64,000 nt of DNA from Thermoplasmata archaeon (lineage in GTDB: Archaea; Thermoplasmatota; Thermoplasmata; Lutacidiplasmatales; UBA184), in NCBI GenBank assembly GCA_035504395.1, contig DATJRX010000032.1:1510-65509 (forward strand). Direction: 5' to 3'. Below are positions 1-12,247 of this stretch, piece by piece (position 1 is the first letter of the stretch; every line of letters starts with the position of its first letter). Position numbers and translations under genes: made by a program. The notes under the pieces are model-generated. The model did no database searches. It was not told where the DNA came from and was given only the letters and a program-made list of their open reading frames with translations.

Positions 1-960
1 AACCGGCTCGCCGACGGCGCCCACATCTCGAGCGCCTCGTTCGGCGCGTTCGGCCTCCGCGGCGTGAAGCCGGTCTACTACGCGTGGGACGCCGAGCGGA
101 TGACGATCGACGTCGCCCGCTCCCGCGAGATCCTGCGGGCCGTCCGGCCGAAGCTCTGCCTGTTCGGGCTGTCGCTGTTCCTGTTCCCGCTCCCGATCGA
201 CGAGCTGCGCCCGACGCTCGAGGAGATCGGGGCGAAGGGCTGGTACGACGGCGCGCACGTCTTGGGGCTGATCGCCGGCGGCGTTTTCCAGGACCCGCTC
301 CGCGAGGGGTGCAGCGTGATCAGCGCGTCGACGCACAAGACGCTCCCCGGACCCCAGCACGGGATCCTCCTCGGCGACGGCCTCGACCCCGAGGTCCAGA
401 AGCGCCTGCAGTCGGGCGCGTTCCCCGGCGTGACCAGCAACCACCACCTGAACGCGATGGCGGCCCTCACGGTGAGCCTCGCGGAGCAGATCGAGTTCGG
501 GCGCGCCTACGCGACCCAGATCGTCGCGAACGCGCGCGCCCTCGCCCAGGCGCTCCACGACAAGGGGTTCGACGTGCTCGCGGCGGACCTGGGGTTCACG
601 CGCTCCCACACCCTCGCCGTCCGCGTCGAGCGGGAGGGCGGCGGGGAGGACGTCGCGCGCCGCCTTGCGGCGAGCGGGATCATCTCGAACAAGAACCTCC
701 TCCCCGGCGACAAGAGCCCGAAGCACCCGGGCGGCGTGCGCCTCGGGACCCCCGAGGTCACGCGCGTCGGCATGAAGGAGCGCGAGATGGCCCGGATCGC
801 CGAGCTGTTCGACGACCTCCTCCACCGCGGGCGCCCCCCCGAGGAGGTGCGGGCCGCCGCGGCCGAGCTCAAGCGCGGGTTCACCACCCTGCAGTACTGC
901 TTCGGCGCGGGGGAGGCGGCGTACCGCTACTACGATCTCACCGGGCGCGACCCGGCCTAG
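1..960 (+). CDS. glyA: serine hydroxymethyltransferase, C-terminal part (5' end lies outside the window)
   Basis: Frame 1 is open from nt 1 to the stop at 958-960. It contains the SHMT PLP-lysine motif SASTHKTLPGPQHG. Confidence 0.9.
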   Translation, partial: NRLADGAHISSASFGAFGLRGVKPVYYAWDAERMTIDVARSREILRAVRPKLCLFGLSLFLFPLPIDELRPTLEEIGAKGWYDGAHVLGLIAGGVFQDPLREGCSVISASTHKTLPGPQHGILLGDGLDPEVQKRLQSGAFPGVTSNHHLNAMAALTVSLAEQIEFGRAYATQIVANARALAQALHDKGFDVLAADLGFTRSHTLAVRVEREGGGEDVARRLAASGIISNKNLLPGDKSPKHPGGVRLGTPEVTRVGMKEREMARIAELFDDLLHRGRPPEEVRAAAAELKRGFTTLQYCFGAGEAAYRYYDLTGRDPA

Positions 961-3740
961 GGCTCGTCGTCCCGGGTCGCGGCCGCGCGGAGCCGGAGCG
1001 CGCGGTCGAGCTCCTCGGGATCGACGACCACGGTGACCGCGTCGTCCGGCTCGGGCGCGAGCGCGAACCGCGCCCCGCCCTGGCCCGCGTCCGTGGCCGC
1101 GAGCGTCCCGTCGGTCACGAGCGACGCGACCCAGTCCGCGAGGTCGGGCGGCGCCGGCGGCGGCGCCCACCGGGCCGCGATCCCGGCGAGGTCGATCGCC
1201 CCCGCGTCGCGGACGATCTCGATCGCCGCCGCGCGCCCTTCGGCCAGGCGGAGGAGCTCGGGGTCGTCGTCCGGGGCCTCCCGGGAGTCCCGCGAGGGGA
1301 TCGACCGGCGCCGCCACGCGAGGATGCCGAGGGCGGCGCCGGCGCCCGCGCCGGGCAGGACGGTCACGAGCAGCAGTTCCTCGGCGAGCGTCGGCGAGGG
1401 GACCCCCACCTCGATCGGGGCGAGGAGCGCGTCGCCCGCGAGGTCCGAGACCGTCACCGTCGCCGGGGTCGCCCCGGGGACGCTGTAGTTCACCCAGACC
1501 GCGGTCGCGGCCGGACCGACGCTCGCGGCGTACGCCCCGACCGTCGTCGAGCGGCTCCCGACGGTCGTGGTGACGAGCACTTCCGCGCCGGGGACCGGGT
1601 TCCCGAACCGATCGGTCACCCGCCAGAGCGTCGCCCCGGACCGGGTCCCGGACTCGGCGGGCGCGGGGTCGAAGAGCCGGAGCTCGCGGTCGTCCGGCAG
1701 GACCGTGAGCGCGAACGGGGCCGGCGGCGCAGGGCCCCCGTCGGCCACCGAGAGCCCGACGTCGATCGTCCCGGCGCTCGGCACGTCGATCGTCACCCGG
1801 AGCGTCCCGTTCGCCCACGCGCCCACGGGGACGTCGAACCATCCGGGGAGCGCGCTCGAGAGCGGACCGAGTCCGGTCGCGTTCACCCAGCCCGCGACAT
1901 CGCCGCCCGCGGCGGTGGTGAGCGAGATCTCGGCGGGCGACGCGTAGAGCGGGACCGTCGCGCCCGCCGGGTCGCGCGCCTCCCATTCGAGCACCGCCGC
2001 CGTGCCCGCGACCGTCGTCGGGGTCCCGGCCAGCGCAGCGGCGACGATCGACGTCGCCGGCCCCGCGAGGACCGTGGCCGAGAAGTCCGACCGGACCCGC
2101 GCGCCGAGCGCGTCGACGATCGTGAGCGAGACCGTCACCGGTCCGGCGGCCGGCGGAACGAACGTCGCCGAGAGGTTCCCGTCGTCGGACAGGTTCGCCT
2201 CCGCGAACGGTTGGGCGAGGTCGGTCGCGTTCCACCACGCCCGGGCCGGCCAGAGGCCGCCCGAGACCGAGGCCGACAGGACGGTCCCCGCGCCACCGGC
2301 GAGCGGGACGGTCGGCGGCGCGAGATCGACCCCGAGCGGCCCGGCGATCGTCGCGGTCGACACGGCCGATTGGTTCGCGCCGAGCGCGTCGACGACCCAC
2401 GCGGTGAGCGGATAGGTGCCGGGGGCACCGTACACGGGATCGAAGCTCCAGTCCGGACCGGACGAGGTCGAGCAGGCCACCGGCCCCGCGCCCGGCGCGA
2501 GGCACGCCCGGGCGAACGGGGCGGTGCCGGTGCCCGGGGCGACCCGCACGTCCACCGCGACGGCCGAGCCGACGTATCCGCGGGGCGCCCCCGGAACGAT
2601 CTCGACCCGAGGCGCGGGCGCGACCGAGATATTGGAAAGCCGGACGGTCGACGCGGAGGCTCCGTTCGACAGCGTCAGGCTCGGGGTCGCGGTGCCGTTG
2701 GCGGAGTACGCGAATGCGATCGCGCATCCGAGCGCGACGGGTCCCTCGGTCGCGTTCGGCACCGTGCAGGGCGCGGTCACGTTCGCGAGGCCGAGGCCCG
2801 GGTCGAGCGTCGTGGTGTAGGCGAGCCCGGGCGCGCCCGTCCCGTTCAGGGAGAACCCAACCGTCTCCCCCGCGTCCACCGTCGTCCGGTTCGCGGACGC
2901 GGCGACGATCATCGTCGGGACCGCGGCGAGGGCGACCGTCACGGAGGAGGTCGTCACCCAGCCGGCCGCCGTCGCGAGCTTCGCGTAGACCGAGAGGTTG
3001 CCCGGCGCCGCGCCGGCGGCGGCCGTGACGTTCGCGTCCGGTCCCGAGCCCGGAGGGTCGGCGAAGCTCCACCCTTCGCCCGAGAGGGACCAGCCGAAGA
3101 TCGGCGCGACCGGGCACGGGGTGCCGAGGACGCTCCAGGCGGACGCATCGAACGTCGCCACCGCGCCCGAGCTGACGGGCCACGTCGCGAACGCCGGCGC
3201 GAGGGAGACGTTCTCGAGGTCCAGGTAGAACTCGATGTGGAAGCGGGTCCCGTTCTGGGTCACGACCGGCTCGGTGCCGGTCGGGTACGGCGGGGCGGGC
3301 GCGAGGGTCACCGCCCCGTACGGCCCCGAGGTCGTGTTGCAGAACTGCACCCCGCCGACGGTTGGCCCGCAGACGACCTGGGGCGTCGCGAGGATCGAGA
3401 AGTTGTACTCGCCGTCGGGCGCGGCGTGGGTCGTGCCGTTCTCGACGTCGCACGCGTAGGCGTACGGCGCGCTGCCGTTGATGGCGGAGGCGACCTCCGC
3501 CTCGTACGAGTAGTTGATCGGCGTGACCGGGATGAACGTGGAGTCCTGGATCGCCACGGTCCCGTTGTACGCGCTCGGGAGCGGGGATCCCGCGCACACT
3601 CCCGAGGACGCGGCGCCGTACAGCGCCCGCGGACCGTCCCCCGGCGCCCCCGGGACCGCGAGGAGCCCGGTGCCAAGCGCGGCGCCCGCGACGAGCACGG
3701 CGAGCAGCACCGCGGTGCGGCGACCGGCACGGCCGGACAT
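957..3740 (-). CDS. large exported, membrane-anchored surface glycoprotein (S-layer/adhesin-like), function unknown
   Basis: N-terminal signal/TM segment (RRTAVLLAVLVAGAALGTGLLAV). The Thr/Ala/Gly/Val-rich ectodomain carries many N-x-S/T sequons. There is a C-terminal TM (LLLVTVLPGAGAGAALGILAW) followed by a ~130-aa cytoplasmic tail. I chose the ATG at 3740; the ORF extends to 3800. Confidence 0.75.
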   Translation of the reverse strand: MSGRAGRRTAVLLAVLVAGAALGTGLLAVPGAPGDGPRALYGAASSGVCAGSPLPSAYNGTVAIQDSTFIPVTPINYSYEAEVASAINGSAPYAYACDVENGTTHAAPDGEYNFSILATPQVVCGPTVGGVQFCNTTSGPYGAVTLAPAPPYPTGTEPVVTQNGTRFHIEFYLDLENVSLAPAFATWPVSSGAVATFDASAWSVLGTPCPVAPIFGWSLSGEGWSFADPPGSGPDANVTAAAGAAPGNLSVYAKLATAAGWVTTSSVTVALAAVPTMIVAASANRTTVDAGETVGFSLNGTGAPGLAYTTTLDPGLGLANVTAPCTVPNATEGPVALGCAIAFAYSANGTATPSLTLSNGASASTVRLSNISVAPAPRVEIVPGAPRGYVGSAVAVDVRVAPGTGTAPFARACLAPGAGPVACSTSSGPDWSFDPVYGAPGTYPLTAWVVDALGANQSAVSTATIAGPLGVDLAPPTVPLAGGAGTVLSASVSGGLWPARAWWNATDLAQPFAEANLSDDGNLSATFVPPAAGPVTVSLTIVDALGARVRSDFSATVLAGPATSIVAAALAGTPTTVAGTAAVLEWEARDPAGATVPLYASPAEISLTTAAGGDVAGWVNATGLGPLSSALPGWFDVPVGAWANGTLRVTIDVPSAGTIDVGLSVADGGPAPPAPFALTVLPDDRELRLFDPAPAESGTRSGATLWRVTDRFGNPVPGAEVLVTTTVGSRSTTVGAYAASVGPAATAVWVNYSVPGATPATVTVSDLAGDALLAPIEVGVPSPTLAEELLLVTVLPGAGAGAALGILAWRRRSIPSRDSREAPDDDPELLRLAEGRAAAIEIVRDAGAIDLAGIAARWAPPPAPPDLADWVASLVTDGTLAATDAGQGGARFALAPEPDDAVTVVVDPEELDRALRLRAAATRDDEP

Positions 3741-3834
3741 CGGGACCCCTGCCCGCGACCCGAGGGAGGCGGTCCGGCCCGGACCGCACCACCCTGCCAA
3801 AAACCCTCCGTCGTCGGGCCGCCGGGAGTGAACG

Positions 3835-4788
3835 GTGCGGTGCGCGACGGCGTCTTACCGCGCCATCGGTCGGGGAGGCGTGGCCCGACCGACGGTGACC
3901 TGGATCACTCCGCCCCGGCTCGCGTCGCTGCCGGTCGAGCGGGCCCAGCTCGAGTACTCCTCGCGGGCGCTCGCGTTCGCGGACGATGGAGGGCGCCTCC
4001 TCCGCGCTTGGGGTCCGCCCGAGCGGCCGTGGGGGCTCGGCGTCGCCGCGGACGGGGCGCGGTGGCGCGTCGAGGCGTGGGGCGCGGGGCCGGCGGCCGC
4101 GCGGCAGGCGGCGCGGGAGCTGTTCTCGCTCGACCATCCGCTCGAGGAGTTCTACCGGCTCGTCCGTTGCGAGCCGGTGCTCCGCGGTACTGAGCGGCGG
4201 TTCCGGGGCCTGCGCATCCCCCGGGACGCGAGCCTGTACGAGGCCCTGCTCTACGCGATCGTCGGCCAGCAGCTCTCGGTGCGGGCAGCGAGCGCGATCC
4301 TGCGCCGCCTTCTCGACCGCGCCGGGGCGCCGCTCCTCGTGGACGGCATCGAGGTCTCGGCGGTGCCGCGCCCGACGCGCCTGGCCGCGCTCCCGGTCGA
4401 GGAGCTGCGGGGGCTCGGGCTCAGCGCCGCCAAGTCGCGGGCGATCCTCGCGCTCGCCGGGACGGTCCGCCGCCGGTCCCTCGCCCCGGCGACCCTCCGC
4501 GCCCTGCCGCGCGCGGACGCCATCGCGCGGCTCGACGCGCTCCCGGGGGTCGGGCGGTGGACCGCGGAGAACGCGCTCCTCCGCGGCGCGGGCCGGACCG
4601 ACCTGTTCGTCGCGGGCGACCTCGGCCTTCGCGCGGCGCTCGCCCGCTACGCGGGGATCGAGCGGGAGCGGCCGGAGGACGTCGCACGGGCCTGGGCCGA
4701 GGCGTGGTACCCCGGATGGGGGAGCTACGCGACGCTCTACCTCTGGCGGAAGATGGTCGCGGACCGTTCGCTCATGGTCGCCGGCTGA
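3835..4788 (+). CDS. HhH-GPD superfamily DNA glycosylase (AlkA / 3-methyladenine glycosylase II-like)
   Basis: Contains LLYAIVGQQLSVRAASAILRRL and the helix-hairpin-helix LPGVGRWTAENALLRG, followed by the catalytic-Asp region FVAGDLGLRAAL. GTG start at 3835; an alternative in-frame GTG is at 3895. Confidence 0.8.
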   Translation: MRCATASYRAIGRGGVARPTVTWITPPRLASLPVERAQLEYSSRALAFADDGGRLLRAWGPPERPWGLGVAADGARWRVEAWGAGPAAARQAARELFSLDHPLEEFYRLVRCEPVLRGTERRFRGLRIPRDASLYEALLYAIVGQQLSVRAASAILRRLLDRAGAPLLVDGIEVSAVPRPTRLAALPVEELRGLGLSAAKSRAILALAGTVRRRSLAPATLRALPRADAIARLDALPGVGRWTAENALLRGAGRTDLFVAGDLGLRAALARYAGIERERPEDVARAWAEAWYPGWGSYATLYLWRKMVADRSLMVAG

Positions 4789-4800
4789 CCGCGTCCGTCC

Positions 4801-5328
4801 TCAACCGCCGAGGGGGAACGCCCGCACGACCCGGTGCTCGGGGCCCTGCGGGGTGAGCGTGCTCTCCTTCAGGGCGAGCTCCTCGACGCGCACCGGCGCG
4901 GCGGACGGGGCCGGCAGCGTCCCATCGAGCAGCGCCCGCGCGCGCTCCCGATCGCCCCGGGAACGGACCCGGAAGAGCGTGACGTGCGGCACGAGCTCCC
5001 GTCCTTCCGCCGGGAGGCCGACGGTCGCGAGCGCGGCGTCGAGGCGGTGCCCGAGGGCGGCGACCTCCGCGCGCCCGCGCCCGACCCCGAGCCAGACGAC
5101 GCGCGGCCGCTCGGGCGACGGGAAGGCGCCGATCCCTTCGAGCCCGAGGTCGAACGGCGCCGTGCCGCGCGCGACCGCCGGCAGCACGTCGAGGATCCGG
5201 TCGATCTCGCCGGGCCCCACCTCGCCGAAGAAGCGCAGGGTGAGGTGCGACGGCGCCGCGGCCGCGGATCCCGCCCCGAACCCGGGGCCGACGGGGCGTC
5301 CTACATCGATCGCGAGGAACGCGCGCAC
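4801..5328 (-). CDS. thpR: 2H phosphoesterase (RNA 2',3'-cyclic phosphodiesterase / LigT-ThpR family)
   Basis: Two H-x-T-x motifs at the expected spacing (HLTLRF and HVTLFR) in a protein of ~175 aa. It lies 24 nt downstream of the ATPase gene on the same strand. Confidence 0.85.
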   Translation of the reverse strand: MRAFLAIDVGRPVGPGFGAGSAAAAPSHLTLRFFGEVGPGEIDRILDVLPAVARGTAPFDLGLEGIGAFPSPERPRVVWLGVGRGRAEVAALGHRLDAALATVGLPAEGRELVPHVTLFRVRSRGDRERARALLDGTLPAPSAAPVRVEELALKESTLTPQGPEHRVVRAFPLGG

Positions 5329-5352
5329 GCGCCGGCCACGGTCCTCGAGCTC

Positions 5353-7911
5353 TTACCGACCGCGCGCCCCGGGCTCGATCGGCTCGGTCGGCGCTCCGCG
5401 GAGCACCCAGACGATCGCGCGGTCCCGACCGGCCCCGATCCGGCCGAGCGACGCCCGCACGGCCCGGGCGTGCGCAGCGGTCCCGACCACGAACAGCACG
5501 ACCGCGCCCCGGGCGGCCGCCTTCGAGAGGTCGTGGCGGATCCGCTCCGCCCGGCGCGCCCCCGTCACCTCCGCCTCGACATGCACGTTCCGCCCGCCGA
5601 AGTACCGCCAGGCCCATCCGGTCCTAAGCCGGTCGATCGCTCCGGCGAGCTCCCCGGGCGCGGCGCCGGTGACGGCCGGCGGAAGCTGGTCGAGCCGCGC
5701 GTCGGGGAGCGTCGTGTCGAACCGCCCCTGCCGGAGGATCTCCATCCGGTACCCCCGCCGGGCGAGGACTCGGAACGCGGCCAGGAGGAGGCGGCGGTGC
5801 TCGGCGCTCTCGCGCGTCGCCTCGGTCGGCGCTCCGAGGCCCAGGCTCCGAGCGCCGGCGTCGGTGAGACGGACCCCGAGGGGTCCGACCTCGACCCAGC
5901 GCTCGCGCACGACGGTCGGCCAGGCGTCGCTGAGGCGGGCTGCATCGATCGGGAGCCCCGGGAGGGCGAGCGCCGCCGCGACCACCGCGCCCTCGGAGAG
6001 CGGCCTGCCGTTCTCCTCGGCCGCGAGCACCGCGAGGAGGAGCCGTTCGATGGCGTCCGACGTCCCGGCGGGGCTCGACGGGCGCGGCGGGGGCCCGAGC
6101 GCGCGCGTCCGGTCGACCTCGATCGCCCAGGACGCCATCGGGTCGGCCGGAGGGTCGGGCCCGGGCGGCACGGGCACGAGCCGGCCGGTCTCGGGATCGA
6201 GTTCGACCGCGCGTCCGACCGGCAGGTGGGGGAGGATCGCCTCGGACTCCTCCCGGGCGAGACCCAGCCAGCCGCCCGCCTCGGCCGCCGCGGGCGGCGG
6301 GACGCGGAACGCGACGAACTGCGTCGAGGCGCCGGCGGCCGCCGCGCGGAGCTCGGGCGCGAGCCGCTCGGGGTACTGGGTCGCGACGATCGCCCGAAGC
6401 CCGTACTTCCGCCCCTCGGCGAGCACCTCGGCGACCAGGCGCGGCGAGAACCCGTGGACCTCGTCGAGCACGACCAGGACCTCGCGCACCCGCGGGAGCG
6501 GCCCCTCGCCCGCGACGCCGAGGAAGGCGCGGGCGAGCAGCAGGGTACCCGCGAACGCGGCCGCCTCGGGTCCGAGCTGGGCGAGCGGGAGGCGCACCAG
6601 CACCGCGCCCGCGTCGCCGAGGATCGCCTCGAGCGGGAGGCCGCCCTCGGGCGGGGCGAGCAGCTCGGCGAGCGCCGGCACGAGGACGACCTTCGAGAGC
6701 CGCGTCGCGGCGGACCAGAGGAACTCCGGATTCCGCCGGACGACCGGCCGCAGCTCGTCGAGGAACCGGCCGAGCTCGGGGCGTCGGGTGCCGAGGCGGG
6801 CGGCGTCCCTCCGGTCCTCGCTCGTCAACAGGTCGTACAGGTCGACCAGCGTGCCGCCCGACTCGAGGACCAGGCGCACGAACGTGTCGTAGATCCGCTC
6901 GAGCCGGAAGCCCCAGTAGACATCGGTCCCGTCGGCGCTCAGGCGCTTCACCGCCGCGACCAGGACGGCCGCGATGCGGTCCTCGTCGGGCCCCCGGGGG
7001 AGTGCGGAGATGCCGGGCACGGGCGGCGCGCCCGCGTCGACCGCCACGACGCGCGCCCGGTCGCGCGGGCCGAGCCGCCCGACGACCGCCGGGGCGAGGT
7101 CGCCGTGCAGGTCGAGGACGATCGTCGCGACGCGGTCCCGGATCGCGTCGGCCGCGCGGCGGGCGAGGTACGTGGTCTTCCCCGCCCCGGACGCCCCGAA
7201 CACGACCGCGTGGCCGGTCGGCGCCCCGGTCGGGGTCGGGACGGTGGGCGCCCGCGGTTCGGCCGTCCCCGCGAGGAGGTCCGCGTCCCCCCGGCGCCAC
7301 GCGTCCCCCGCGAGGTCCGCGATCCGGCGCTCCCGCCAGCGCCGTCGGGCGGCGAACCCGGCGCGGTAGCGCACGGTCGTGGCCAGGCCCTCCCCCGACC
7401 ACTCGCGCGCGAGGGCCCGCCCCACGTCCGCGAGCCGCGCGGCACCGGCGACCGGGTCGGCCGCCGCGAACCGGAAGCGGCGCGCGGCGTACAGCCCCCC
7501 GTGGCGCCCGCGCAGCCAGAACGTCTGCACGGCGAGCCAATCCCCCCCGGCGAGCCGCTCCGAGATCGCGGGCGGGTCGAGCGGGACGGGATCGCCGCGG
7601 TCGCGCCCCGCGTCCGCGCCCGGGACGATCGACCCGATGCGGTCGAACGCGAGGCCGATCGGCTCGGGCGCGCGGCGCGCCGGGACCGGCGCCGGGAGCC
7701 CGAGCGGTCCCGGGCTCGCGTCGGCGGCCGCGCGGACGAGGGCGCCCGGGCGGACCGTCACCCACGGCCGCGGGTCGGCGCCCTCGTGCTCGAGGACCGC
7801 GCCCGCCGGCGCCGGCGCGGCGGCGATCTCGTGCGCGAGCGCGCGGTAGAAGATCCGGCGGAGGCGGTAGGGCGCGTCGACGCGCAGGCTCGCGCAGTCA
7901 GACGGCGGCAC
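5353..7911 (-). CDS. HerA/FtsK/VirD4-type (DUF87-like) P-loop NTPase with an unknown N-terminal domain and a C-terminal wHTH-like plus PD-(D/E)xK-like region
   Basis: Walker A GASGAGKTTYL, Walker B VLVVLDEVHGF, and a GRKYGLRAIVATQYPERL segment. The C-terminal ~120 aa (AEHRRLLLAAF...GRFDTTLPD...NVHVEAEV) resembles a nuclease core. The domain assignment beyond the ATPase is by eye only. Confidence 0.75.
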   Translation of the reverse strand: MPPSDCASLRVDAPYRLRRIFYRALAHEIAAAPAPAGAVLEHEGADPRPWVTVRPGALVRAAADASPGPLGLPAPVPARRAPEPIGLAFDRIGSIVPGADAGRDRGDPVPLDPPAISERLAGGDWLAVQTFWLRGRHGGLYAARRFRFAAADPVAGAARLADVGRALAREWSGEGLATTVRYRAGFAARRRWRERRIADLAGDAWRRGDADLLAGTAEPRAPTVPTPTGAPTGHAVVFGASGAGKTTYLARRAADAIRDRVATIVLDLHGDLAPAVVGRLGPRDRARVVAVDAGAPPVPGISALPRGPDEDRIAAVLVAAVKRLSADGTDVYWGFRLERIYDTFVRLVLESGGTLVDLYDLLTSEDRRDAARLGTRRPELGRFLDELRPVVRRNPEFLWSAATRLSKVVLVPALAELLAPPEGGLPLEAILGDAGAVLVRLPLAQLGPEAAAFAGTLLLARAFLGVAGEGPLPRVREVLVVLDEVHGFSPRLVAEVLAEGRKYGLRAIVATQYPERLAPELRAAAAGASTQFVAFRVPPPAAAEAGGWLGLAREESEAILPHLPVGRAVELDPETGRLVPVPPGPDPPADPMASWAIEVDRTRALGPPPRPSSPAGTSDAIERLLLAVLAAEENGRPLSEGAVVAAALALPGLPIDAARLSDAWPTVVRERWVEVGPLGVRLTDAGARSLGLGAPTEATRESAEHRRLLLAAFRVLARRGYRMEILRQGRFDTTLPDARLDQLPPAVTGAAPGELAGAIDRLRTGWAWRYFGGRNVHVEAEVTGARRAERIRHDLSKAAARGAVVLFVVGTAAHARAVRASLGRIGAGRDRAIVWVLRGAPTEPIEPGARGR

Positions 7912-8212
7912 GTCGGGCCTCCGCGCGCGCGATGGCGTCGAGCCGGTCGATCTCGTGCGCGAGCGCGGGGAGGCCGTTCACGCGCGCGAACGCGCGCAGG
8001 CGGTCGGTCCCGACGGCGTGGCGCACCGCGCGGTCGTACTCCCAGAGGCGCACGGTCCAGAGCGTGCGGCCGTCCGGGAACAGGTAGAGCCGGGCGCGGG
8101 GGCGATACGGTCCGGCGATCGGGAGCCGCAGCTCGCCGATGGCGCGGACGCGTCGGGTCGTTCGGCGGGGAATCGGTTGGGCGACGTCGCATTCGATGCC
8201 AGATGCATCCAC
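7898..8212 (-). CDS. hypothetical 104-aa protein, translationally coupled to the downstream ATPase
   Basis: Its 3' end overlaps the start of the 852-aa ATPase gene by 14 nt. Its composition is more protein-like than the surrounding Arg-rich artefact ORFs. No motif recognised. Confidence 0.5.
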   Translation of the reverse strand: MDASGIECDVAQPIPRRTTRRVRAIGELRLPIAGPYRPRARLYLFPDGRTLWTVRLWEYDRAVRHAVGTDRLRAFARVNGLPALAHEIDRLDAIARAEARRAAV

Positions 8213-8770
8213 GGTCGTTCACAAACCCTCCCGCCGCCGCCGAGCCTGCGGACGGTGGGGTTCGGTCGGGGTGCGGCGGGGTCCCGTCGCACCGGCGCGG
8301 TCGCCCGCCCTCGGACGGCTCGCCCGCGGCCGGACCACCGCGGAGGAACGAGGGACGGGGGTCCGGCGCGAGCGCCGGGAAGTCCGCTAGCGCGACGGCG
8401 CGCCCAACCACTGCGCGAGCGCTCGGCGGAACCGGCCGGGCGTTCGCTGGGGGCGGGCGGCCGGGAAGGACCCGTTCTCCTTCGCGGCGACGCCGGGCGT
8501 CAGCGGGTTAGGGTCGATCGCTCGGTCGGCGTTCGGCCTCGATCGGAACGATCGGGGGCGGCGACCGATGCGAGGACCCGGGTTCGGGTCAGGCCGGCGT
8601 CGGATTCGGTCGGAAGGTTCCCGCGGGCGATCGAGGGGGGAACGGTTCGGGACCGGTGGGGCGGCGCGCAGCCTCGCATTCGCCCGGCCCAGGCGGCGCC
8701 GGAGGTCGGCGCTTCCGCCCCCGCGGTCGATGAACGCTGAGGAGAAAGATCGGACGCCCCGAGAGGTTGT

Positions 8771-8836
8771 GGAAGGACCCCTCGCACGCCCAGGACACGG
8801 TGCTGTCCTCTGGGGGCGATGTGAAGGGGTCCTTCC
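8771..8836. other. 66-nt compound stem-loop inside an ORF-free gap (candidate structured RNA element)
   Basis: GGAAGGACCCCT (8771-8782) is the perfect reverse complement of AGGGGTCCTTCC (8825-8836). An inner stem pairs CCCAGGACA (8789-8797) with TGTCCTCTGGG (8804-8814): 9 bp, a 2-nt bulge and a hexaloop. Confidence 0.5.
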
Positions 8837-8921
8837 GGGGGTGGTTGCAACCCAACGAGGGGGTGCACCGTATTTGAGGCGGGAACCGGGAGGTCGCGGA
8901 ACGCCCCCGCGCGCGGCCGTT

Positions 8922-9547: not shown

Positions 9548-10165
9548 ATGGCGCTGAAGCGACGCGAGGTCGAGCTGACGGTCGAGCGGCCGCTCGACCC
9601 CACGAACCCCGGCGCCGGGACCGTCCGTCTCACCGGACGGTTCGAGGGCGACGCGGACGGCCGCGCGCCGTCGCACGGGGAGCTGGCCGACGCGCTCGAT
9701 CGGCTTCGGGCCGACCTCGACGCCCTCGTCGGCGCCCCGATCGCGGCGATCCCGGTCGCCCGGCCCGATCGTGAACTGACCGAGCTCATCGAGACGTACC
9801 GCCCCCGCCAGCGCGACCTGGTGGACGCGCTGCGCGGCGACGGGGAGCTGACGGTCGGCGAGCACGAACGGCTGCTCGCCTACCTCGACGGGATCGGCGC
9901 GCGCCCACCGGGAGCGCCCTCCTCCGCACCGGCGAGCCCGCCGCCCGAGCCGACGTTCGACCGTCCGATCGCCGCGGTCCCGATCGCGGCGGACCGGTCG
10001 CCCGAGTCGGCCCGGCCGATCTCCGAGCTGCTCGAGCGCTACCAGATCACGTCGCTGAAGCAGGCCGGCGCGGTCCGGGCCCGCCGCGAGATCTCGTTCG
10101 AGGAGTACATGGCGCTCAAGCGTCACTTCCAGCGCGACGAACCCCCGCCGCGCGCCCCGGGCTAG
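9548..10165 (+). CDS. hypothetical protein (205 aa)
   Basis: ATG-initiated ORF with helical, Asp/Glu/Leu-rich composition unlike the GC-artefact ORFs. It is followed after 12 nt by the HAD hydrolase gene. No motif recognised. Confidence 0.55.
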   Translation: MALKRREVELTVERPLDPTNPGAGTVRLTGRFEGDADGRAPSHGELADALDRLRADLDALVGAPIAAIPVARPDRELTELIETYRPRQRDLVDALRGDGELTVGEHERLLAYLDGIGARPPGAPSSAPASPPPEPTFDRPIAAVPIAADRSPESARPISELLERYQITSLKQAGAVRARREISFEEYMALKRHFQRDEPPPRAPG

Positions 10166-10177
10166 CGAGGCGAGCGG

Positions 10178-10891
10178 ATGGGCCCCGTCTCCGCCCCCGC
10201 CGCGCCGACGGGGATCCGCGCGATCCTCCTGGACTACGGCGGAACGCTCGTCAGCGGCACCCCGGATCCGTACCCGGTCTGGGCGCCGGTGCTCGCGGCC
10301 CGCGGACTCTCCCTCGACCGCGCGGGCTGGGAGGGCGCGAACGATCGCGCGCTCGCCCGTCTCGGACACCTGATGTACCGCACGGTCGGGGAGCGGCCGA
10401 CGTTCTGGGACCGCGTGCACGCCGCGACGCTCGAGGAGCTCGGCGTGGCGGACCCCGGCGGGGCGATCGTGGCGGCGCTGCACGACGCCGCCACGTCGCC
10501 GACGGAGCGCCCGCCGTTCCCCGAGACCGAGGCGGTGCTGCGCGAGTTGCGGGGGCTCGGGCTCTCCCTCCATGTCGTCTCGAACAGCACCGACTACCTC
10601 GTCGAGGCGATCGACCGCCTCGGGTGGCGGGACCGGTTCGACTCGCTGACGTACTCCCAGGAGGCCGGGGCGGAGAAGCCGGACCGGCGGGTGTTCGAGC
10701 TGGCGCTCCGGCGGGCCGGGGTCCCGCCGGGCGCGGCGCTGCACGTCGGCGACACCTGGGGGGCCGACTACGAGGGCGCCCGGGCCGCCGGCCTCAACGC
10801 CGCGTGGCTCAGCCGCGACGGGCGCGCCCCGCCCGAGCCCGCGACGACCGTCCGGGACCTGACGGGGATCCGCGCGCTCCTCGGGCGGTGA
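10178..10891 (+). CDS. HAD-superfamily hydrolase (subfamily IA-like)
   Basis: Motif I-like ILLDYGGTLV, motif II VVSNS, and motif IV HVGDTWGADYEGARAAG. Confidence 0.8.
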   Translation: MGPVSAPAAPTGIRAILLDYGGTLVSGTPDPYPVWAPVLAARGLSLDRAGWEGANDRALARLGHLMYRTVGERPTFWDRVHAATLEELGVADPGGAIVAALHDAATSPTERPPFPETEAVLRELRGLGLSLHVVSNSTDYLVEAIDRLGWRDRFDSLTYSQEAGAEKPDRRVFELALRRAGVPPGAALHVGDTWGADYEGARAAGLNAAWLSRDGRAPPEPATTVRDLTGIRALLGR

Positions 10892-10906
10892 GCGCCCGGC
10901 CGCGCG

Positions 10907-12247
10907 TCAGCCCCCGGCGGTCTCGGCCGGCTTCGGGTACGCCACCATCGCGAGGCACCCCACGTCGGTGATGCCGCGCCGCATCCGGACCGCCCGCGCC
11001 CGACCGGGCGCGACCGTCGCGTCGGGATCGGTCGGCGCGCCGATCACCGCGCCCGGCGGGAAGCTCGGCGAACCGATCTCCCCGGACGTGCGGAACAGCC
11101 CGACGCTCGTCTCGCGGCGACGGAGCAGTCCGGCCGCCTCCGTGAGGAACGCGCCGAGGGCCGGACCCTCGTCGACCCCCTCGGGCAGCCCGAGCGTCGC
11201 CATGCTGAACGTCGCGACGCCCTTCGTCCGGCTCTCGGGGGTGATCCGCTCCGCGACGAACAGATCCTCGGACCGGGCGAGGCACCGGCGCGCGGTCTCC
11301 TCGGGGGACTCCCGGAGCTGGAGGAACGCGAGCCGGGACGTCCACCCCTTGTCGAACACCGCGTCGGCCGCGGCCTGCAGCGCGTCGGACGGCGACGCGA
11401 CGACCACGGGACGCGCGACGCGCTCCCGCGGCGGGGCCGCCCCGCCCGGCAGCAGCGGCCCGGCCGCGTCGACCTCCCACGCCTCCGCCGGGACCGCGGC
11501 CGCTTTCCCGATCCGTTGGACGATCGCCCGCGCTTCGGTCCGCTCGGCCGGGTCGACGGCCCGGGTGGGGCCGCCGCCGAGGACGGCCGCCCCGTCGCCC
11601 CGCTCGACGACGAACGTCGCCACGTCGGCCCGGGTCGTGGCCTGCGCGAGGCGGCCCCCGACCGCCCCGGTGCCGAGCACCCGCGCGAGGAGACCGACCT
11701 CCCGGCCGGTGGCCCCGCGCTCGTGGGCCCCGCGGGTCAGCGCCTCGAACTCGGCCGGCCCGAGACCGGCGGGCGGCGTCGCGAGCGCGCGGAGGGCGCC
11801 CGGCGAGAGGAGCACGAGCAGGAGGTCCTGCTCCGTGAGGTCGCGCGCGATCTCGAGCGCGGCGTCCGAGACCGCCTGAGCCTCGGGGGTGCCCGGATAT
11901 CCGGGCGGCACGGCGATCCCCTGGAACGGGATCTCGGCCGGCACCGGCTCGGGTCCGGCGAGGAAGCCCTGCGTGAGCCGGTTCCCGATCGCGTGGAGGG
12001 CGGCGAGCGCCATCGAGTTCGCGGCGTTCCCCGCCGCGACGAACGCGATCTCGCGGTAGCGGCCGTCGGCGACGAACCGGTTCCCGACCCGCAGCGTCCC
12101 GGACTCCCGGCGCAGCGCGAGCCGGACCGCGTGGTAGGCATCGGCGGCGGTCACCGCCGCACGGAAGGCGATCGCGTGGATCGGGTCCGGGCCCTTCGGA
12201 TCCGGCTCGCCCGGCGGGAACGGGTCCCAGGGGAAGGCGCCGATCAC
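10907..12247 (-). CDS. glycerate kinase-like protein (DUF4147 / MOFRL family), divergent
   Basis: The overall layout and segments (FVAAGNAANSMA, LLLVLLSPGALRAL, GAVIGAPTDPD...) resemble glycerate 2-kinase / hydroxypyruvate reductase TtuD-type proteins. The usual LLSGGGSAL motif is degenerate. Confidence 0.6.
   Translation of the reverse strand: MIGAFPWDPFPPGEPDPKGPDPIHAIAFRAAVTAADAYHAVRLALRRESGTLRVGNRFVADGRYREIAFVAAGNAANSMALAALHAIGNRLTQGFLAGPEPVPAEIPFQGIAVPPGYPGTPEAQAVSDAALEIARDLTEQDLLLVLLSPGALRALATPPAGLGPAEFEALTRGAHERGATGREVGLLARVLGTGAVGGRLAQATTRADVATFVVERGDGAAVLGGGPTRAVDPAERTEARAIVQRIGKAAAVPAEAWEVDAAGPLLPGGAAPPRERVARPVVVASPSDALQAAADAVFDKGWTSRLAFLQLRESPEETARRCLARSEDLFVAERITPESRTKGVATFSMATLGLPEGVDEGPALGAFLTEAAGLLRRRETSVGLFRTSGEIGSPSFPPGAVIGAPTDPDATVAPGRARAVRMRRGITDVGCLAMVAYPKPAETAGG

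Follow-up and report, generated by a model that had tools for sequence, protein, structure and literature searches.

Layout of the three-gene cassette

Three co-directional genes lie closely packed on the minus strand of a 64,000-nucleotide stretch of a Thermoplasmata archaeon genome (GenBank GCA_035504395.1, contig DATJRX010000032.1), which we refer to as the window and from whose first letter all window positions are counted. A small open reading frame (ORF; 7898-8212, 104 aa) is followed by the gene for an 852-aa ATPase (5353-7911) and by the gene for LigT, a predicted 2H phosphoesterase of 175 aa (4801-5328), each of the three opening with GTG. The small ORF and the ATPase gene share a 14-nt overlap, GTGCCGCCGTCTGA, with the small-ORF stop TGA at 7900-7898; the ATPase stop TAA at 5355-5353 is followed by a spacer of 24 nt and then by the LigT GTG, and the convergent HhH-GPD gene (3835-4788) ends 12 nt from the LigT stop. 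Strand, overlap and spacer are just as given in an earlier note on this DNA, made from its letters alone, and every motif quoted there is found at its expected place. We tentatively interpret the three genes as a DNA translocase–nuclease module that descends from conjugation machinery and has been domesticated, now at work in host DNA metabolism.

A GGAGG motif, read from the sequence at 7918-7922 on the minus strand, sits inside the small ORF 6 nt 5' of the ATPase GTG and may act as the Shine-Dalgarno element of the ATPase gene. With this spacing, the three genes would be co-transcribed as an operon, and the small protein would be made by translational coupling with the ATPase. At the G+C content of the window (~75%) spurious ORFs are common, as exemplified by an antisense ORF of 1225 aa that spans the whole cassette. 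The three minus-strand ORFs are real genes, because their codon-position GC is coding-like (GC3 of 0.89-0.96 vs GC2 of 0.56-0.60) and because homologs of each are numerous, with over 300 found for the ATPase and 121 for the small protein, and LigT scoring above the TIGR02258 cutoff.

A predicted soluble ATPase of the FtsK–HerA superfamily

From its motifs and profile matches, we assign the 852-aa protein to the FtsK–HerA superfamily, as a soluble and very divergent ATPase on the VirD4/TraG side. Its more than 300 full-length homologs (50-73% identity) all come from metagenome-assembled genomes of Thermoplasmata, and a neighbour-joining tree of the ATPase separates a clade A, which includes the window, from a clade B at ~30% identity. 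The P-loop core, delimited by motifs and hidden Markov model (HMM) matches, covers residues 231-590 (6142-7221, minus strand) and carries Walker A (GASGAGKTTYL, residues 239-249, 7165-7197), Walker B (VLVVLDEVHGF, residues 478-488, 6448-6480) and a GRKYG...ATQ motif (GRKYGLRAIVATQ, residues 500-512, 6376-6414), all on the minus strand, so that Walker A, Walker B, and the Arg/Lys and polar sensor residues of the superfamily are in place. Across 45 sequences, GASGAGKT (239-246), VLDEVH (481-486), GRKYG (500-504) and ATQ (510-512) are invariant; a further strongly conserved segment between Walker A and Walker B (~residues 300-430) may be helical, by analogy with TrwB.

The superfamily assignment, already proposed in the earlier note, is borne out by profiles from Pfam, PADLOC, NCBIfam and the PDB, which differ in strength and reach. 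Pfam TrwB_AAD_bind (PF10412) matches at 25.2 bits (cutoff 20.5) over residues 222-273 only, DUF87 stays below its cutoff (19.5 vs 23.2 bits), HerA_C reaches E=0.056, and PF02534 (T4SS-DNA_transf) gives no match in the window protein. The PADLOC profile mad8, 314 positions long, matches residues 231-524 at 1.8e-11, and phrog_5156 matches at 4e-12. The best NCBIfam matches, CedD, TraD, VirB4 and CedB, are all at the level of the P-loop only, and PDB profile matches to HerA (8wiv), TrwB (1e9r), DotL (6sz9) and YjgR are weak (E ≈ 1e-3). We find no transmembrane (TM) segment in the ATPase: no 19-residue window within the N-terminal 400 residues attains a Kyte-Doolittle value of 1.6 or more, and the same scan applied as a control to a bacterial-type type IV coupling protein (T4CP), P0374, reveals such a segment at 19-52.

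The N-terminal domain (residues 1-230; 7222-7911, minus strand) is the fastest-evolving part of the protein and keeps invariant residues at P55, Q129, T130, W132, R145, W192 and W205. It could not be placed in the earlier note, and it still matches no Pfam family at E<=10 and no PDB profile. Clades A and B are barely alignable over this region (hhalign E=0.017), an N-domain common to the outgroups is not detectable by hhalign comparison, and identity with DUF8128, a domain found in related coupling proteins, was rejected at an hhalign probability of 0.1%. Two long variants, P0249 and P0260, were considered as forms with an extra domain and set aside as low-complexity read-through; in the P0249 cluster (1171 aa, 60 members) the ORF continues into ~320 aa of such sequence.

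A winged helix and a predicted nuclease-like domain follow the motor

A winged helix-turn-helix (wHTH) domain after the motor, as had been suggested from sequence, is well supported by structure prediction. In an AlphaFold2 (AF2) model of residues 600-852, with an overall predicted local distance difference test score (pLDDT) of 81, residues ~617-684 (5860-6063, minus strand) form three helices and a beta-hairpin wing at pLDDT >90, and Foldseek matches this region to wHTH proteins of archaea and bacteria, 2x4h (probability 0.97), 7oyk (0.94) and 8jxk (0.85), the DNA-binding domains of SSo2273 and CggR being among the matches.

The remaining C-terminal domain (residues ~695-840; 5392-5829, minus strand) is modelled as an α/β unit of ~150 aa (pLDDT 84.8, predicted TM-score 0.79) with the element order a1-b1-b2-(3 short helices)-b3-a2-b4-a3-b5, where a1 spans model residues 9-24, b1 29-31, b2 44-46, b3 81-86, a2 94-106 and b4 109-115. 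Judged on element order only, and not on coordinates, the α-β-β-β-α-β core of the PD-(D/E)xK nucleases is present, with a three-helix insertion between b2 and b3. Invariant residues fall at the places where this fold holds its metal ligands, namely E701/E704-H705 on a1, P736-D737 where b2 begins, E779-x-E781 on b3 and K797 on a2; the segments AEHRR (703-707), GRFDTTLPD (729-737) and NVHVEAEV (775-782), singled out earlier for their PD-(D/E)xK-like spacing, carry most of them. Q728 is invariant as well, and the most distant members strictly keep H705, Q728, (P)D737, E779-x-E781 and K797. A D...ExE variant of the motif is also carried by BamHI.

Similarity searches point in the same direction at low significance. 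The C-domain matches no Pfam family at E<=10 and no PDB sequence profile. A Foldseek search with the two-domain query was dominated by "wHTH + Rossmann" methyltransferases and is uninformative for the C-domain, and refolding the C-domain alone improved the structure search only modestly: against the PDB nothing is found at E<=1e-3 (best E 0.011), most matches are generic α/β folds, and the best TM-scores belong to YaeQ (0.40), EcoT38I (0.39) and BsaWI (0.38). The top BFVD matches are nearly all annotated nucleases (VRR-NUC, endonuclease I-like, Vsr-like, MmcB-like, CoiA-like and restriction endonucleases), with probabilities up to 0.96, TM-scores of 0.40-0.47 and E>=0.023. What stands of the proposed PD-(D/E)xK-like C-terminus is therefore the element order, the placement of the E, PD and ExE residues and the nuclease-rich BFVD list, and what falls short is statistical significance and the canonical Lys, which is Glu here. 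On balance we consider a restriction-endonuclease (PD-(D/E)xK) fold probable for this model, and catalytic nuclease activity plausible at somewhat lower confidence.

The small protein and the ATPase form the tightest unit of the trio

The 104-aa protein, described in the earlier note as a small accessory protein, is real and conserved. A Pfam scan finds no known domain in it, and its 121 homologs (55-95% identity) come without exception from Thermoplasmata. Among the 73 non-redundant loci with enough upstream sequence, it is detected directly upstream of the ATPase in ~51. Its conserved core reads G-x-[VL]-R-[VLI]-P ... RP-x-A-[RH] ... W-x-[VL]-R-L ... GLP, and distant homologs occupy the same position in clade B, at loci L085 (E=4e-7), L095 (E=3e-17) and L091-93. 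At L095 the gene caller missed the real small partner gene, which is masked by an antisense call of 323 aa at 3051-4022.

In the ~19 clade-A loci that lack the small protein, a search for an alternative conserved small ORF found none. Three further loci nested in clade A (L071, L076 and L079) carry a DUF6015 protein in the slot of the small protein (~5990-6550), ending at the ATPase start; LigT is absent from them and their flanks differ, with Pus10 upstream and a PrsW protease downstream. The DUF6015 protein was considered as a remote homolog of the small protein and rejected, at an hhalign probability of 0.2%. Taken over all loci, the small protein and the ATPase are the tightest unit of the trio.

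LigT is an old and frequent but dispensable neighbour

The third protein, recognised earlier as a 2H phosphoesterase, is by its profile matches an ordinary ThpR/LigT-type enzyme of the RNA 2',3'-cyclic phosphodiesterase family. It scores 107.2 bits against TIGR02258 (8.8e-31; cutoff 65.7), matches Pfam LigT_PEase (PF02834, 4e-21) and 2_5_RNA_ligase2 (PF13563, 4e-17) above their cutoffs, and has both HxTx motifs intact (HLTL at 28, HVTL at 115). What is unusual about this ThpR/LigT member is its deeply conserved adjacency to the ATPase: LigT lies on the same strand directly downstream of the ATPase in 70 of 80 loci, at gaps of 3-318 nt, and is set apart from it by an inserted gene in another four.

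Within clade A this adjacency is uninformative on function, because the whole ~15-kb neighbourhood is collinear there. Clade B is the informative comparison. Its upstream flanks differ, with DnaJ and a membrane protein where clade A has HxlR, and yet at L085 and L095 a small-protein homolog abuts the ATPase and LigT follows 24-42 nt downstream. Since the trio is retained in clade B despite the different flanks, the arrangement of small ORF, ATPase and LigT predates the split of the two clades, and the expectation that the trio would be conserved as a unit in related genomes holds beyond blanket synteny.

These data also bear on a narrower alternative, in which the small protein and the ATPase make up a two-gene unit and LigT is a housekeeping ThpR, functionally unconnected to them. 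That LigT scores as a ThpR equivalog, that clade-A collinearity would place it there in any case, that six loci have no adjacent LigT and one has a 4.4-kb major facilitator superfamily (MFS) transporter insertion between ATPase and LigT, and that the plasmid relatives described below have no LigT all agree with it. We nevertheless hold it to be doubtful, as adjacency, strand and short gap persist in clade B at ~30% ATPase identity and with DnaJ rather than HxlR upstream, and as LigT stays downstream, in overlapping frames, even where a methyltransferase has been inserted. A single metagenomic ORF (P0279, 1049 aa) that fuses ATPase and LigT in frame adds a weak hint of a functional link. The linkage of LigT to the ATPase is thus old and frequent, and it is dispensable.

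Three loci depart from this pattern at the LigT position. Two of them, L080 (minus strand, 9589-11673) and L082 (minus strand, 9725-11785), have no LigT there, and a second, canonical HerA-like ATPase of ~690 aa (DUF87 and HerA_C) converges on the family ATPase. At L086 (9760-13021), two identical LigT copies flank a 405-aa ORF without known function, as in a duplication around an insertion, and a TnpB-like gene (OrfB_IS605/Cas12f1-like_TNB) lies ~6 kb upstream.

The cassette occupies a fixed core site of the chromosome

At least 80 of the species-representative genomes in GTDB carry the ATPase, in 112 matching stretches, and all are Thermoplasmata apart from a fully syntenic locus in a record whose title says just "bacterium". 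In this record (L043, DAIDCO010000076.1), ATPase, LigT, HhH-GPD, surface protein and SHMT (at 84% identity) are in synteny, and it is probably a mislabelled or misbinned archaeal contig. Relatives with identities between 73% and ~40% keep one gene order over ~15 kb, namely SHMT, a surface protein of ~930 aa, HhH-GPD glycosylase, LigT, ATPase, small ORF, HxlR, a 205-aa protein without assignment, DUF4147 and DAO, and the identity of the ATPase tracks that of its housekeeping neighbours. The rest of the window encodes core metabolism, including Fe-ADH, pyruvate kinase, glutamine synthetase, aminotransferases, aldehyde dehydrogenases, an ABC transporter binding protein and a glucoamylase; it contains no integrase, no other defence gene and no gene of a mobile genetic element. 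No family homologs occur among the 72,556 plasmids of PLSDB or the viral contigs of IMG/VR. Because the site is fixed and collinear and lies amid core metabolism, and because the family is missing from both of these collections, the cassette is a vertically inherited core chromosomal operon of a high-GC clade of Thermoplasmata from soil and peat, and not part of a defence island or an integrated element. The setting in a variable region or defence island that the earlier note had implied is not borne out.

One subclade of clade B carries an additional gene. At L091 (8804-9955), L092 (8869-9987) and L093 (5115-6296), a PF01555 methyltransferase (MTase), a beta-class N6-adenine/N4-cytosine DNA MTase, lies between ATPase and LigT, with frames that abut or overlap those of its neighbours and with LigT kept downstream. 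Its motif IV (DPPF) precedes motif I (FCGSGTT). The gene is absent from L085 and L095 of the same clade, and tblastn finds no PF01555-type MTase in the window or in the clade-A loci examined, so a single late insertion is more parsimonious than several losses. The insertion argues that the module acts on DNA, and it establishes that the module can combine with a modification enzyme in an arrangement resembling restriction-modification (R-M). In the window and the clade-A loci, the MTase encoded with the nuclease that marks a classical R-M system is missing.

These observations frame a second alternative, that of a restriction-like or anti-mobile-element defence module, in which the ATPase-nuclease would translocate on foreign DNA and cut it. 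Self-protection would then come from methylation in the clade-B subclade, or elsewhere from modification dependence of a type IV-like kind that needs no MTase, and LigT would serve as a regulator or end-processing accessory. The tight placement of the MTase in three divergent members speaks for such a module, as do the best match in the defence library (mad8 of the methylation-associated MADS, 1.8e-11), a weak similarity to the HerA-type defence ATPases (8wiv, TdpA) and a toxin-antitoxin pair beside the cassette in one locus (L004). The occupation of the same core site in at least 80 species, with identity that follows the housekeeping neighbours, and the lack of variability, island features, integrases or other defence genes in 64 kb count against it, and the MTase is confined to one subclade and most parsimoniously a late arrival.

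MADS is an eight-gene operon of defence hotspots in Pseudomonas (bioRxiv 10.1101/2023.03.30.534895). The likeness lies in the mad8 HMM, which matches the ATPase core, and in the link of one family subclade to an N6/N4 DNA MTase. When the PADLOC check proposed in the earlier note was carried out, this ATPase module was the only match for the trio; none of the other seven MADS genes is present, and the context is core metabolism. Membership in MADS was rejected on these grounds, as was a defence island, given the collinear core neighbourhood and a window free of mobile-element and defence genes. We regard a defence role as unlikely.

Relatives in haloarchaeal conjugation modules

A search of 1.84 billion representative proteins with a profile of the C-domain returns 97 matches, nearly all of which share the ~850-aa architecture of the window protein. 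The outliers (743-2060 aa) are again DUF87, TraG-D_C or TrwB-type ATPases, and the family profile aligns to them over the motor (230-540) and over the wHTH and C-domain (620/670-845). One outlier, P0335, is clustered with a TraC/PrgI-like protein, a VirB4-like AAA_10 ATPase and a DUF8128 protein, and has homologs on 137 plasmids, mostly haloarchaeal megaplasmids, where they are annotated as type IV secretion system (T4SS) coupling proteins or TraM-recognition-domain proteins. Among these, WP_157534011.1 of Halobacterium hubeiense pSTJ001 keeps the HR…Q…PD…EAE…RKA signature. The nearest outgroup of the family is a rare Thermoplasmata protein, and beyond it lie proteins with PF02534, PF10412 and PF12696, the hallmarks of T4CPs.

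Like the window protein, the haloarchaeal megaplasmid ATPases combine the motor, a wHTH-containing region and the same C-domain, and are soluble, with no N-terminal TM segment. They differ from it in sequence (~20% identity), in a distinct N-terminus and in being plasmid-borne with T4SS-like neighbours; they have neither the small partner nor LigT, whereas the window family is chromosomal and vertically inherited. In the two haloarchaeal-type T4SS modules of L087 and L094, two coupling-protein-like ATPases are encoded in each, one of the DUF8128/TraM-recognition type and one of the wHTH/C-domain type, and the family C-terminal profile matches only the ATPase with wHTH and nuclease-like C-domain. 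A giant TraG-D_C protein at L089 (586-6768; P0337, 2060 aa), surrounded by small ORFs in what looks like a mobile element, is matched twice by the family profile over the wHTH and C-domain region (residues 814-1002 and 1442-1594).

Bacterial T4CPs (TrwB, VirD4, TraD and DotL) belong to the same ATPase branch, with a similarity to the window protein that is mainly at the P-loop level; they have an N-terminal membrane anchor, reside in conjugation or T4SS operons and carry no wHTH or nuclease-like C-terminus. The window protein fails two features that define a T4CP, the membrane anchor and the T4SS context: no VirB4-like, pilin-like, channel or other T4SS genes are found in the window or in the ~90 family loci examined. 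In stock and presumable mode of action it still belongs with the coupling-protein-like ATPases. The alternative raised in the earlier note, that homologs would sit in conjugative or T4SS modules, is accordingly true of the distant relatives and not of the family itself.

A coupling protein still at work in chromosomal DNA transfer, Ced/Ted-like or left from an ancient integrated conjugative element, with its membrane parts encoded elsewhere, is for the same reasons quite unlikely. In its favour, T4SS coupling proteins, both those of haloarchaeal plasmids and that of the VirB4/TraC-like cluster, are the nearest relatives with an annotation, the best NCBIfam matches (CedD, TraD, VirB4, CedB) lie in this realm at P-loop level, and archaeal chromosomal DNA-exchange systems that use such ATPases do exist (PMC11868833, PMC9905601). 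Weighed against this are the missing TM anchor, the missing VirB4-like, pilin-like and channel genes, and the absence of the family from plasmids and viruses. CedD and CedB, DNA-import ATPases with a TM segment and a VirB4-like N-terminal domain (PMC11868833), were themselves rejected as identities for the window protein, which scores 19.6 bits against a cutoff of 600 for CedD and 12.9 against 700 for CedB and has no TM segment.

Comparison with other FtsK–HerA-type systems yields partial likenesses only. HerA-NurA, SIR2-HerA (8wiv), TdpAB (8wet) and YjgR likewise pair a ring ATPase of the superfamily with a nuclease and are weakly similar at Walker A/B and GRKYG; in HerA-type systems, however, motor and nuclease or effector are distinct polypeptides, and the fold of the latter is another one, that of NurA being RNase H-like. 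No SIR2 or TdpB neighbour is found beside the cassette, and a HerA-NurA type was rejected as there is no NurA-like neighbour and DUF87 stays below its cutoff. FtsK/SpoIIIE resemble the window protein in placing a winged helix that recognises DNA after a motor of this superfamily; in contrast to them, the window protein has no FtsK_SpoIIIE Pfam match and no N-terminal membrane domain, and its wHTH is not terminal, as the nuclease-like domain comes after it. No named system matches the cassette, as the earlier note had concluded; an FtsK–HerA motor coupled to a nuclease is well known as a general kind.

A possible domesticated translocase–nuclease module

Because the same motor, wHTH and C-domain recur in the ATPases of haloarchaeal conjugative megaplasmids, we tentatively favour, with a confidence a little short of even, the reading of the cassette as a domesticated (exapted) DNA translocase–nuclease module of conjugative ancestry that now operates in host DNA metabolism. 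Its host role would be in repair, recombination, or the handling of chromosomal DNA ends or branches. The ATPase would assemble into a ring translocase on DNA, hydrolyse ATP by means of Walker A, Walker B and the arginine/sensor motifs, all of them intact, and engage DNA through the wHTH, and the acidic, presumably metal-binding centre of the C-domain could then nick or cut the DNA. The 104-aa protein may be a stoichiometric partner or a regulator, possibly docking on the N-domain, and ThpR/LigT might clean up a nucleic-acid intermediate whose ends are blocked by 2',3'-cyclic phosphates or in a related way.

Several observations weigh against this reading. The T4CP similarity of the window protein itself is weak, as the TrwB_AAD_bind match covers the P-loop region only and TraG-D_C (PF12696) reaches just E=0.39. 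For the C-domain, all structural matches fall short of statistical significance (best E 0.011 in the PDB, 0.023 in BFVD), and the position of the canonical catalytic Lys is Glu in every member, distant ones included, so that its nuclease activity is putative. Neither the N-domain nor the small protein has an assignable fold. The small protein is not detectable in ~22 of the 73 loci, and LigT, which matches the housekeeping ThpR equivalog, is absent beside the ATPase in 6 of 80, so that neither partner is strictly required, each being missing at some loci. A host role in DNA repair, finally, is suggested by the inheritance pattern and the context, and by these alone.

A more specific variant of the domesticated module would make the wHTH and restriction-endonuclease-fold unit the nicking enzyme of archaeal conjugation, a substitute for the relaxase, captured by Thermoplasmata as a chromosomal DNA-processing or DNA-exchange machine together with the small partner and the 2H phosphoesterase. 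We give this little credence as it stands. Archaeal conjugative plasmids have so far yielded no relaxase (PMC9905601). The C-domain fused to a coupling ATPase is a testable candidate for DNA nicking and hand-over where no relaxase is recognisable, and the haloarchaea are genetically tractable.

An RNA substrate, with the C-domain as an RNA endonuclease and LigT processing 2',3'-cyclic phosphate ends in RNA repair or surveillance, is very improbable: it would account for the persistent linkage to an RNA 2',3'-cyclic phosphodiesterase and for an active-site variant with conserved His and Lys and no canonical Lys, and some enzymes of the restriction-endonuclease fold do act on RNA, but FtsK–HerA/VirD4-type motors are DNA translocases, the relatives are DNA-transfer proteins, the gene inserted in the clade-B subclade is a DNA MTase, and the conserved acidic cluster suggests metal-dependent cleavage, which yields no cyclic phosphates.

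As a domesticated module, the family would be a case of a mobile-element motor captured into a core operon, with a deeply conserved link to a 2H enzyme of RNA or DNA end processing. Its members are annotated only as "hypothetical protein", and their N- and C-domains belong to no Pfam family. That the gene is kept throughout a clade of archaea abundant in soil and peat probably means that the function is needed.

Conserved non-coding elements and neighbouring genes

The ~700 nt that separate HxlR from the small ORF are not neutral. A segment of ~88 nt (8764-8851, minus strand), which lies just downstream of HxlR, is a candidate for a structured small RNA not described before. More than 60 loci share it at 71-99% DNA identity, and it is predicted to fold into one long hairpin of 21 pairs, 15 of which show compensatory double changes, with U·G pairs fixing the strand. 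Neither its 5' tail GCAACCACCCC nor its loop GCACCG varies, an AAATA box is found ~25 nt upstream, and many loci have oligo-T tracts downstream. A search of the intergenic region against Rfam 15 returns no match. With a covariance model, a single copy is detected in the window, and all copies elsewhere fall in HxlR-carrying loci, with none in clade-B or outgroup loci; because its copies are confined to loci with HxlR, we associate the small RNA with HxlR and not with the cassette.

Directly upstream of the small ORF lies a second conserved block (~8330-8500, minus strand), with 66-78% DNA identity in 40 loci and no 3-base periodicity (0.46/0.44/0.43). It contains several predicted hairpins, among them a perfectly conserved CCGGCG...CGCCGG, and compensatory changes in 17 of 33 predicted pairs, with a modest covariation term (-1.66); it may be an operon leader, a 5' untranslated region or a promoter. 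The spacer between small RNA and small ORF tolerates insertions: at L004 (3900-4690) it accommodates a toxin-antitoxin pair of the nucleotidyltransferase/HEPN (MNT-HepT-like) kind.

Two neighbouring genes of the window are syntenic with the cassette across clade A, one for a 947-aa Ala/Thr/Pro-rich protein with only weak Ig/PKD-like matches (957-3800, minus strand) and one for the 205-aa protein without a known domain (9548-10165, plus strand).

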